Source: a virus. From it: 36,621 nucleotides of DNA. The position numbers and the translations under genes are program-made. The notes under the pieces are model-generated. The model was not told the origin of the DNA, made no database searches, and was given only the letters and a program-made list of their open reading frames with translations. Positions 26,813-28,205 of the stretch are shown here, one piece after another. How positions within the stretch are numbered: position 1 is the first letter of the stretch; the number at the start of each line of letters is the position of its first letter. Location of the stretch: the IMG/VR virus record IMGVR_UViG_3300020037_003876, one strand, 5' to 3'.

Positions 26813-26991
26813 AAAAATAAAACCAAGTCAGAAGCTGGCCAGATTTTCACTGGCAACGCTGTGTATTCTAAGCAGTACTTTCATGCTATCCCAAGTCTCC
26901 CATTTCACAGCAAACCTGCCATTAAGGTTGAGTGTACTATCCGCTCCGCAGCTTCATTCTTGGCCACCGTTTAACCACGGTAGCACGGGTT

Positions 26992-27108
26992 TTGTTAGTG
27001 ACCGGAGCTGAGTCTCTTTACCCGGCATGGCTTCAAAGTGTTCCAGTCCATCTCTGCCTACTACACTGGTTTCGCTGCACGTCAGCTTAATCGTGCATTC
27101 ACTAACAA
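26992..27108. repeat. Module I: a 10-bp closing helix plus a conserved internal hairpin.
   Basis: ttgttagtga (26992-27001) pairs with tcactaacaa (27099-27108). Hairpin gcacg (27077-27081) / cgtgc (27092-27096) has loop tcagcttaat. Confidence 0.7.
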
Positions 27109-27199
27109 GTTGTTGATACTTCCTTGGCTACCTCAAGCATGGCGGTTAGAGGATTTTTAACTACGCCAATTTACCCAGAAATATCAACACTTCTTAGTG
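27100..27199. repeat. Hairpin IIa.
   Basis: cactaacaagttgttgata (27100-27118) pairs with tatcaacacttcttagtg (27182-27199), with one C.C mismatch and one bulged T. Confidence 0.7.
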
Positions 27200-27208
27200 C
27201 TGCATTCA

Positions 27209-27351
27209 CTAACAATTAAGGCGGCTGGGCTTGATACCAGCTCCGGGCTGCTAATGTACTGAGCTACATTCCGGTTCCTCGTGACTTTATCTCAGTTTGC
27301 ACCAAGCGTGTCCTTACGGTTTTATCCTCCACGCCGCGCCTTAATTGTTAG
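27209..27351. repeat. Element B1, closed by a perfect 15-bp helix.
   Basis: ctaacaattaaggcg (27209-27223) pairs with cgccttaattgttag (27337-27351). Inner hairpins: 27224-27241, 27253-27270 and 27306-27334. Confidence 0.75.
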
Positions 27352-27373
27352 CCATCCGTATCGTGGATGAGAC

Positions 27374-27490
27374 GTGTTAGTGACCGGAGCTGGTACTATC
27401 CCGGCATTCCCGTTTCTTGATTGATCAGACCAAGCGCAAGGCAAGTACCCACCTCAAGGCACGTCAGCTTAATCGTGCATTCACTAACAA
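27374..27490. repeat. Module I', the second copy of module I.
   Basis: tgttagtga (27375-27383) pairs with tcactaaca (27481-27489). 27459-27492 is 34/34 identical to 27077-27110, and 27374-27392 is 18/19 identical to 26992-27010. Confidence 0.75.
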
Positions 27491-27618
27491 GTCATGTGCT
27501 CTAAAGGCGAAAAGCGGTTCCGGTATCTTGGACAGTCCAAAGGGCGTCAGGCACTTTGACCCTACGCCCTGCCGGTGCGACCTTCTCGGCTTGTAATAAG
27601 AGCACATGCTTCTTACTG
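27482..27618. repeat. Hairpin IIb.
   Basis: cactaacaagtcatgtgctct (27482-27502) pairs with agagcacatgcttcttactg (27599-27618). Confidence 0.7.
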
Positions 27619-27625
27619 CTGCATT

Positions 27626-27708
27626 CACTAACAAGAAGAGACTAATGGGCTTACATTCCCCTTCGATCAAAAGACCTCCGCTAATGCCAAAGTCTCTTCT
27701 TCTTAGCG
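27626..27708. repeat. Hairpin IIc.
   Basis: cactaacaagaagagac (27626-27642) pairs with gtctcttcttcttagcg (27692-27708), 15/17 bp. Confidence 0.7.
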
Positions 27709-27715
27709 CTGCACA

Positions 27716-27897
27716 CTAACAATTAAGGCGGCTGAGATTGATATCAGCTCTAGTACCCCGCGTCAATAGCGCCTATCAGGTAGGCCGGGCTTCGTCGCAT
27801 ATCCTGCGCTTACTGGTTTCCGACCTGTTACCCTTCGCGTAAATTGCTCTAGCCTTGCTCTTAGGCGTGTCCTTCCACGCTGCGCCTTAATTGTTAG
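27716..27897. repeat. Element B2, with the same 15-bp closing helix as B1.
   Basis: 27716-27730 pairs with 27883-27897. Hairpins gctga/tcagc (27731-27748) and gcgtg/cacgc (27865-27880). Confidence 0.75.
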
Positions 27898-27927
27898 TCA
27901 TGACTCTTACCCGGTCAGGTTAGGTGT

Positions 27928-27995
27928 TGGTGCGTAGCGACTCGAATCGAACGAGATTCCCTCTATTCTGCGATTTTCACGCAGCGCGACTACGC
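27928..27995 (-). ncRNA. tRNA-like element: a 7-bp acceptor-type stem, a TTCGATT T-loop hairpin, a 5-bp stem with a 7-nt loop, and a 3' ACCA. It is not a canonical cloverleaf.
   Basis: Minus strand: gcgtagt-cgcg-ctgcg tgaaaat cgcag-aatagagggaat-ctcg ttcgatt cgag-tc-gctacgc-a-cca. There is no D arm, and one extra nucleotide lies between the T stem and the acceptor. Confidence 0.35.
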
Positions 27996-28205
27996 GGCCC
28001 TAGTTACCTACTTACCAGATTTCTCCACCAACAAAACAGCACACTGACCTATGCACCTCTGCACTCTCATTACTGAGACTAAAACAATGTGCTGATTTGT
28101 TAGTTCTGACATTCCAACAATCATGAGCACTCCTGCGTTATGTGCATTCTGCGGATGTTTTTATTCATCGTTAAAAGTGCCAGAAGTGCCCATGATTCTT
28201 AGAAC

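Follow-up and report, generated by a model that had tools for sequence, protein, structure and literature searches.

In IMG/VR virus record IMGVR_UViG_3300020037_003876, a stretch of 36,621 nucleotides (nt) that we will refer to as the window, the gap between a minus-strand gene ending at 28206 and another starting at 26812 is occupied by a non-coding island. This island is a chain of about nine hairpin modules on the minus strand, consisting of two tandem units with the module order B-H-I and an extra hairpin. We interpret it as an accessory non-coding locus of tandem structured RNA modules produced from the early operon, and give this RNA-array model, taken as a whole, about an even chance of being right. 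In the proposed mechanism, the island would be read through within the minus-strand early operon, and the RNA would fold into a tandem chain of independent modules of three types (B, H and I), each unit running from a short leader hairpin through B and zero to two H modules to a terminal I. The constant frames of the modules would be recognition and processing sites for a double-strand-specific RNA-binding enzyme of the RNase III type, which would release stable hairpin RNAs by cutting the chain out of the polycistronic early mRNA; their variable tops would do the actual work, as decoy or regulator. The RNase III step and the decoy or regulatory role are proposed by analogy, and we place their likelihood well below that of the array model itself.

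The island contains no credible open reading frame (ORF). The only ORFs of at least 60 amino acids (aa) in the gap are 27464-27670 on the minus strand, with a TTG start, and the tail of 26541-27011 on the plus strand; searches of the island ORFs and of smaller fragments against Pfam and PHROGs at E<=1 gave no match, barring one chance-level PHROG (E 0.47). The ORF list and these screens confirm the first-pass annotation of this DNA, made by a model from the letters alone, which had described the island as ORF-free and as a tandem of two diverged units that repeat one order of parts, the second carrying an additional hairpin. All these parts were found in both units, and every helix named in that annotation is present where it had been placed; the pattern as a whole goes far beyond what chance would give. 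Its wording of “large structured RNA or RNA array” holds for the modular array and fails for one large RNA, since B, H and I modules are separable, vary in number and can have ORFs between them.

Read in transcript order, the array comprises H0 (28104-28027), a short hairpin, B2 (27898-27715), Hx (27708-27626), H2 (27618-27482) and I2 (27492-27374), followed by a leader hairpin (27369-27353), B1 (27351-27209), H1 (27199-27100) and I1 (27110-26992). H0 is closed by the base helix CUAACAAA/UUUUGUUGG, with U·G wobble pairing in the sense strand only, and includes the helix 28037-28043/28088-28094 that had been noted earlier as a separate flanking element. Directly 5' of B2, the short leader hairpin UGAC...GUCA (27901-27917, minus strand) was read from the sequence and is weak alone. 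B2 has a perfect closing helix of 16 base pairs (bp), ACUAACAAUUAAGGCG/CGCCUUAAUUGUUAGU (27715-27730/27883-27898), and B1 a perfect one of 15 bp (27209-27223/27337-27351), both detected as inverted repeats. The inner hairpins of B2, P2 (GCGUG-GAAGGA-CACGC) and P4 (GCUGA-UAUCAAUC-UCAGC), are conserved, and its middle is variable. Hx, the extra hairpin of unit 2, is also an inverted repeat (27628-27643/27691-27706), with a G·G mismatch in its base CGCUAA-G-AAG / CUU-G-UUAGUG. Hairpin II of each unit corresponds to H2, with an 18-bp basal rod and a 96-nt branched top, and to H1, with a 22-bp basal rod. The terminal module I2 is closed by GTGTTAGTGA (27374-27383) pairing with 27481-27490, and consists of the invariant 5' stretch UUGUUAGUGAAUGCACGAUUAAGCUGACGUGC, a middle that varies, and, on the 3' side, the hairpin GCCGG..CCGGU, after which comes CACUAACA; in I1, TTGTTAGTGA (26992-27001) pairs with TCACTAACAA (27099-27108). 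The leader hairpin CAUCC-ACGAUAC-GGAUG, already named as a helix in the first-pass annotation, lies 1 nt 5' of B1.

Every module shares the same closing pairs, 5' CUAA(C/G)AA… with …UUGUUAG 3', and neighbouring modules are connected by an 8-11-nt single-stranded linker, (UG)AAUGCAGCR. The closing sequence TTGTTAGTGA or its complement occurs five times exactly and three times with one mismatch inside the island, within about 1.1 kilobases (kb), at spacings of 107, 275 and 144 nt, and has no exact match elsewhere in the 36.6-kb window. The H base, CACUAA-G-AAG / CUU-G-UUAGUG, contains a G·G mismatch and usually a bulged A, and is continued by a copy-specific stem. The predicted basal rods of the 11 H elements span 17-26 bp in 10 of them (the outlier measures 13 bp; median, 20), with one to three single-base irregularities each, and the apical parts above them vary from 22 to 96 nt. 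The I modules keep their 5' 32 nt (UUGUUAGUGAAUGCACGAUUAAGCUGACGUGC), a conserved loop sequence (AUUAAGCUGA) and the 3' end AUGCCGG…CCGGY-CACUAACAA, with a varying middle. The first nine nt of I double as the 3' arm of the H module before it (shared sequence UUGUUAGUG), so that only one of the two helices, the base of H or the closing helix of I, can form at a time. As a separate observation, every linker (about 27210-27196, 27629-27615, 27716-27704 and 27103-27089) contains an in-frame three-codon mini-ORF, namely AUG-CAG-CAC-UAA, AUG-CAG-CAG-UAA, GUG-CAG-CGC-UAA and AUG-CAC-GAU-UAA; these show no obvious Shine-Dalgarno sequence and may be a coincidence of the motif.

Related loci (labelled L with a number) were gathered by pattern scans of IMG/VR, of metagenome contigs and of the genomes of 185,579 reference species, together with searches for neighbouring proteins. 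The pattern scans found modules in at least two IMG/VR contigs (L011, L063) and at least 11 metagenome contigs (L084-L094); the single match among the 185,579 species' genomes is a CRISPR spacer, not a module copy. Neighbouring proteins added the contigs L097-L101, with the same island and other flanks, and L107-L109, with a two-H array. Among the matches listed in viral contigs, TAAGAAGGATTGAGATTG was found only in L011, L063 and two chance coding-region matches, and CTAACAATTAAGGCG only in L011 and three loci (L078-L080) otherwise unlike the window. Blastn against phage and plasmid records gave no match for the island, literature searches on the module motifs found nothing, and tblastn of the open segments of related loci against the island was uninformative, finding again only the homologous non-coding modules. 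The order leader-B-H(0-2)-I, present twice in the window, is found as well in L011, L084, L085 and L089-L094, and a grammar results in which a leader hairpin comes first, B and/or H (zero to two copies) follow, and I is always terminal.

The folding of the modules was evaluated as z-scores of the minus-strand RNA against 200 dinucleotide shuffles per module. The values are -5.7 for H0, -5.23 for Hx, -4.99 for H2 and -5.86 for H1, and -4.86 and -3.89 for B1 and B2, respectively; H0 has a minimum free energy of -34.2 kcal/mol, which none of its 200 shuffles equalled. The H modules differ markedly between strands: sense and antisense fold energies are -34.6 vs -21.8 kcal/mol for H0, -35.2 vs -27.8 for H1, and -29.5 vs -17.7 and -35.0 vs -20.4 for further H copies, and the sense fold is the better one in all 11 distinct H elements, typically by 8-15 kcal/mol. 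The sense helices of H contain 40 G·U pairs and two A·C mismatches, the antisense folds 13 of each, and the 3' hairpin of I presents G·U at sites where other copies carry G-C or A-U. Furthermore, the array and nearly all the long flanking ORFs share their strand in about 12 loci (e.g., 7/7 ORFs in L011, 9/9 in L063 and 5/5 in L092).

The pairing of the modules is also supported by compensatory change. At least six unrelated H stem sequences pair in the same register, directly abutting the frame, and in an alignment of ten H copies (the trimmed first and last 18 nt, without the bulged base and connected by a dummy loop) both sides have changed in 8 of 17 pairs, in agreement with the earlier observation that helix positions are kept while the paired sequences change; 96.5% of the cells of this alignment are paired, compared to 80% when shuffled and 35-52% when slid. 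The Hx stem covaries with that of the H module of L089, and the top motif GGGGAAUGUAAG is kept in both despite their fully exchanged stems. Three compensatory pairs are found in the inner hairpins P2 and P4 of B (eight B copies), and the leader hairpins occupy the same position with unrelated stems across loci (CAUCC/GGAUG, CUCCG/CGGAG, CCCAG/CUGGG, CCCCG/CGGGG). Taken together, the fold asymmetry, the wobble pairs, the co-orientation, the covariation of H and B and the leader hairpins favour selection that acts on the fold of one single strand, of sense polarity. The G·U asymmetry and the co-orientation identify this strand as the minus (operon-sense) one, and because the island lies inside an operon, the folded molecule would most simply be the transcript, although single-stranded DNA of the same polarity would fit these data too.

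The window itself represents a phage genome of about 36.5 kb that is complete and was assembled as a circle, since approximately 121 bases are common to both of its ends (1-121 and 36501-36621). The minus-strand operon runs, in transcript order, from a Cro/YdaS-like gene (30357-30599) and an O-like replication initiator (29220-30134) through two unknown genes to the island, and continues 3' of it with three small ORFs, NinB (25558-26133), a DUF968/HNH gene and RusA, as expected from the early-operon location that had been assigned to the island between replication and nin-like genes. Terminator-like sites within the island are not above chance. In the annotation of the complete genome, neither integrase, reverse transcriptase, Cas, HUH Rep nor transposase appears among the ORFs, which agrees with the earlier remark that no reverse transcriptase, Cas, recombinase or toxin gene adjoins the island.

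The constancy of base and linker together with free tops, the retention of GGGGAAUGUAAG across exchanged stems and the existence of a dedicated terminal module suggest recognition of the frame, with the top as cargo. About two helical turns of double-stranded RNA with internal mismatches constitute the substrate class of RNase III, examples being the early-mRNA processing sites of phage T7 and the small RNA DicF, matured from a prophage operon. With 17-26 bp in 10 of 11 elements, the H rods are of the length of such sites (about 20 bp or more of mostly continuous double-stranded RNA), and the B helices measure 15-16 bp. The same features would also be produced by a purely cis-acting mRNA punctuation (processing sites, stabilisers or insulators for adjacent genes, comparable to the T7 early RNase III sites), piled up after the loss of moron genes and with no stand-alone product. 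This explanation, which we judge rather improbable, finds support in the single modules or short arrays located between ORFs and the ORFs located between modules (L011, L084, L088, L107), in the roughly 20-bp rods with mismatch and bulge, and in the early-operon location. It fits poorly with nine modules in one gene-free block and none between other gene pairs of the genome, with a B-H-I order whose terminal module is kept even without ORFs, and with the conservation of some tops, as for GGGGAAUGUAAG in Hx and the L089 module.

Several points weigh against the RNA-array model as we propose it. Transcription and processing are assumed from position, and the role of RNase III is inferred by analogy. 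The I modules fold only marginally better than their shuffles (z -2.46 for I2 and only -1.52 for I1), and B and I overall lack a clear strand asymmetry. The H alignment was anchored on the frame, with tops trimmed and the bulge removed, and is thereby biased toward structure; many copies are near-identical, four H copies being of one stem type, which limits the independent evidence. In the closing helix P1 of B, 14 of 15 pairs never vary, and such invariant base helices are neutral with respect to pairing; a change in one copy of the leader hairpin (L085/L094) is disruptive. No constant partner protein was found across the loci, where the neighbours vary, and the homologue of the accompanying small ORF in L102 lacks an array. 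Finally, recombination junctions cluster at the frames, and modules are 97-100% identical between phages whose genes are only about 70% identical, two findings that fit a selfish or recombinational DNA element too.

Such DNA-level repeats (BOX-, ERIC- or MITE-like), in which the frames would be short homology linkers for shuffling of modules and morons of the RecE/RecT type, the hairpins a by-product and the RNA devoid of a role of its own, are in our opinion unlikely, though several features speak for them. Junctions are located at the frames in L099 (inside B2, at 27752), L107 (B truncated after CTAACAATTAAG) and L088 (only the 3' arm of B). In L011, B and Hx are separated by a lysozyme gene and two small ORFs, and in L084, B and H by a 95-aa ORF; in both loci the ORFs are bracketed by GTTAGTG…TAAGAAG copies and end inside the frame, with no hairpin of their own. 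The Hx copies of L011, L086, L088 and L092-L094 are 97% identical to that of the window, while the ninB regions of L011 and the window share 70%. The block is present or absent between phages that are 90-94% identical, a RecE-like exonuclease, NinB and RusA are encoded in the genome, and the start-middle(n)-end order resembles the A-B(n)-C order of pneumococcal BOX. On the other hand, the sense-only G·U bias of the H stems and the constant co-orientation with genes are unexpected for homology in duplex DNA, and stems beyond the frames that are unrelated and yet always paired are needed neither by linkers nor by one MITE family. The genome contains no transposase, no target-site duplications were seen at module borders, and there are no copies elsewhere in the genome or, the CRISPR spacer aside, in the 185,579 species' genomes; copies at a single locus with non-homologous interiors are not those of a MITE or palindromic-repeat family, and the BOX-like modular order is a resemblance in layout only. 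The possibility raised at first that the island might match a known insertion sequence (IS) or MITE, or a decayed gene, thus found no confirmation in these comparisons or in the Pfam and PHROG screens.

The accessory character of the island follows from a close relative, IMGVR_UViG_3300020050_002530 (L081/L082), in which both flanks are 90-94% identical to the window and about 170 unrelated bp with a 51-aa ORF replace positions 28113 to 26612. The accessory segment (26612-28113) is therefore formed by the array and a small ORF, as a block present or absent between close relatives. The first-pass annotation had proposed that intact ORFs at this place in related phages would argue against a structured RNA; such an ORF exists here in a trivial sense only, being unrelated and standing in for the entire segment, which makes the island an accessory element and not a decayed gene. 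Since L082 keeps the initiator region at 93.6% nucleotide identity without the island, a phage replication origin or iterons for the O-like initiator were also rejected. A three-way mosaic junction is located at 28113-28122, just past a hairpin (28119-28197, minus strand) that occupies the 3' end of the 130-aa gene upstream: the sequences of L082, L088 and the window agree up to the end of GATTGTTGG (GAUUGUUGG) and are unrelated from there on. This hairpin contains the helix 28119-28131/28185-28197, which had been counted among the flanking helices of the island; the flanking helices are all present, but this one lies outside the variable segment and is shared, unchanged, with the island-less L082. 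The contig L097 is identical to the window over the island but also over all its flanks except a methyltransferase gene, and therefore allows no inference on conservation of the island.

The small ORF of the segment (26606-26812, minus strand; 64-68 aa, no known family) accompanies the array: its exact protein (P0001) is found on five contigs, each time 3' of an identical array and with differing outer flanks, and a 58% homologue (P0002) occurs on L102 with no array upstream. Between array and small ORF lies a non-repeat spacer of about 180 nt of unique sequence (26813-26991, minus strand), with one candidate promoter-like site (26894-26865) whose match to the consensus is of chance frequency. 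Other neighbours include a Tad2-like gene of 78 aa (Thoeris anti-defence 2, PF11195, E 8e-19; L092 1501-1737 in transcript orientation) directly upstream of the array, and morons (a PEP-CTERM protein, lysozyme and other secreted proteins) adjoining arrays in other loci. In L100 (1581-2690) the identical array, together with its 64-aa ORF, precedes a 67-aa ORF and then the gene of an RtcB RNA ligase (PF01139), two genes downstream. Within these phage genomes, the array lies in the accessory, anti-defence region.

Some further observations were made around the arrays. A conserved 7-bp hairpin, GACAUAC-CGGCU-GUAUGUC, and its variants are found in L011 (about 2800-2840), L063 (about 5505-5540) and L084 (about 1040-1075), all in transcript orientation, immediately 5' of the ribosome-binding site of genes for small secreted proteins that lie 3' of the arrays, with a promoter-like TTTACT-17-TATATG farther upstream. 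In a more distant relative (L103, 5327-6364), an IS with a DDE_3 transposase stands instead of the array, 3' of the homologue of the 130-aa gene. Elsewhere in the window, a second block missing from L082 (22713-24829) contains a 504-aa DUF4942/DNA methyltransferase gene and small ORFs; this methyltransferase gene is also the sole strongly diverged part between L097 and the window, with 20-60 differences per 200 bases in otherwise nearly identical sequences. In the 20-36.6-kb half of the window, nucleotide similarity to isolated phages (about 80%; Salmonella and Rheinheimera phages) is confined to the gene of a pentapeptide-repeat protein (31128-31928).

Known classes of elements were compared with the array one after another. 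The suspicion expressed earlier that the island belongs to no named RNA family was sustained by the Rfam 15 covariance models (including tRNA, Y RNA, C4, ROOL, GOLLD and ribozymes), which gave no match at the gathering threshold or at E<=1 in the window and nine loci; at E<=10 only sub-threshold microRNA and small nucleolar RNA noise appeared. That the island is nonetheless an RNA of a known kind (tRNA array, CRISPR, riboswitch or ribozyme, ROOL/GOLLD) or a gene in decay strikes us as hardly credible. A tRNA or tRNA-like structure was suggested by eye at 27925-27993, where a T-loop-like GTTCGATTC is combined with an …ACCA end, and a T-loop was likewise seen in a module top of L063; ARAGORN found no tRNA in the window, L011 or L063, Rfam was negative, and the stretch has a z-score of 0.11. 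The alternation of a constant 24-27-nt unit with variable segments recalls a CRISPR array, but these segments measure 47-115 nt, are irregular in length and self-complementary, and no cas genes are present. As to a decayed gene, the ORF fragments match neither Pfam nor PHROGs, nor does the island match phages or plasmids by blastn.

Integron attC-like recombination sites in single-stranded DNA (CALIN-like), acted upon by a tyrosine recombinase and receiving ORF cassettes at G|TT, were considered as well and are in our estimation very improbable. The CTAAC…GTTAG ends, the conserved structure with variable sequence, the lengths of 64-184 nt, the tandem arrangement in one orientation and the ORFs sometimes inserted at GTTAG would all suit them, as would CTAACAATT, with which the aadA attC starts as well. 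Nevertheless, no RYYYAAC…GTTRRRY box pair 50-150 nt apart exists on either strand, the module ends being GACTAAC, GGCTAAC or CACTAAG … GTTAGTG. The basal stems are perfect (15-16 bp in B) or carry a symmetric G·G and one bulged A (in H), and attC features such as extrahelical bases and an unpaired central spacer are absent. The complete 36.5-kb genome encodes no integrase of any type among its annotated ORFs, the inserted ORFs lack a 3' hairpin of their own, and the better-folding strand is the coding sense, whereas attC uses the bottom strand.

Other candidate functions were tried and rejected. A sponge for CsrA/RsmA is not indicated, as GGA and ANGGA are not enriched over composition, and antisense guides directed at genes of the phage itself are not indicated either, the matches elsewhere in the genome being no more than chance 11-12-mers. 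A rolling-circle nick site was suggested by CTTGATA in the P4 loop of B (plus strand), but there is no HUH/Rep protein and B2 has ATTGATA, so we treat it as a coincidence. For a mimicry of type I-F CRISPR repeats (GCAGC..CUAAGAA), the I-F hairpin is absent.

A link to a host is provided by the CRISPR spacer mentioned above. The contig L083 (NZ_QPHG01000014.1, “MAG: Nitrosomonas sp. CP45”) contains at about 2122-5240, on the minus strand, a CRISPR array with 44 copies of the 37-nt repeat GTAGCGCCCGGCTCCAAAGCCGGGCGAGGATTGAAAC, and 9 of its 43 spacers match array-bearing phage loci (L011, L087, L090, L092 and others). Spacer 19 corresponds to the invariant 5' part of module I at every array-bearing locus; it is identical to 27075-27108 and matched in 32 of 34 nt by 27459-27490, and these 5' 32-34 nt of the I module are 100% conserved in all the related loci. 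These matches would tie the phage group to a Nitrosomonas host, subject to the correct binning of a low-coverage contig. This metagenome-assembled genome (MAG) is that of an ammonia oxidiser whose phage biology is hardly known.

If processed RNAs are indeed made, the array would represent an undescribed family of phage non-coding RNAs with invariant frames and hypervariable structured tops, as well as a concrete case of accessory functions at the RNA level in phages and of short conserved structured sequences organising mosaic moron exchange. Should they prove to be selfish palindromic repeats instead, the modules would exemplify something rare, namely such repeats confined to phage genomes. 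A more far-reaching, and doubtful, idea is that of an RNA “cassette” system, in which constant frames would flank exchangeable structured cargos, to be released from the early transcript as small stable RNAs that inhibit or decoy host proteins of defence or RNA metabolism, the frames doubling as recombination handles for the swap of cargos and morons. Such a system would be the counterpart, at the RNA level, of integron cassettes.

Compared with described systems, the array shares with the T7 sites R0.3-R1.3 and with DicF the imperfect hairpins of about 20 bp with a mismatch or bulge, located in an early operon, on the sense strand and related by duplication; here, nine of them stand head-to-tail without genes between, with exactly conserved base and linker and long variable tops, and cleavage is predicted only. 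Like pneumococcal BOX (boxA-boxB(n)-boxC), ERIC and Correia/MITE elements, the modules have a modular order, form hairpins, would be transcribed with their neighbours and spread between genomes, but they belong to phages, occupy one locus rather than being dispersed, and have unrelated paired interiors and a sense wobble bias, with no transposase or target duplications. Tandem co-oriented hairpin sites with …TAAC / GTTA… ends, more conserved in structure than in sequence and with interleaved ORFs, are common to attC/CALIN arrays, from which the present array differs by the lack of consensus boxes, extrahelical bases and integrase, by favouring the opposite strand, and by ORFs without a site of their own. 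CRISPR arrays, solitary repeat units (RNA anti-CRISPRs) and antitoxin RNA repeats of the ToxI type also alternate a constant unit, here the 24-27-nt CUUGUUAGUGAAUGCAGCRCUAAGAAG with a degenerate last copy, with variable segments, and the 3' end of this unit (GCAGC..CUAAGAA) may resemble type I-F repeats; in our case, however, the segments are irregular and self-complementary, the constant unit pairs with its neighbours and not with itself, and neither a cas nor a toxin gene is present. The large ornate prophage RNAs ROOL and GOLLD are likewise large gene-free structured regions in phage genomes, each with one conserved fold, whereas the island has no Rfam match and is built of separable, shuffling modules. 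The array thus belongs to no described family, and the nearest in kind are the phage intercistronic processing hairpins and the modular palindromic repeats.

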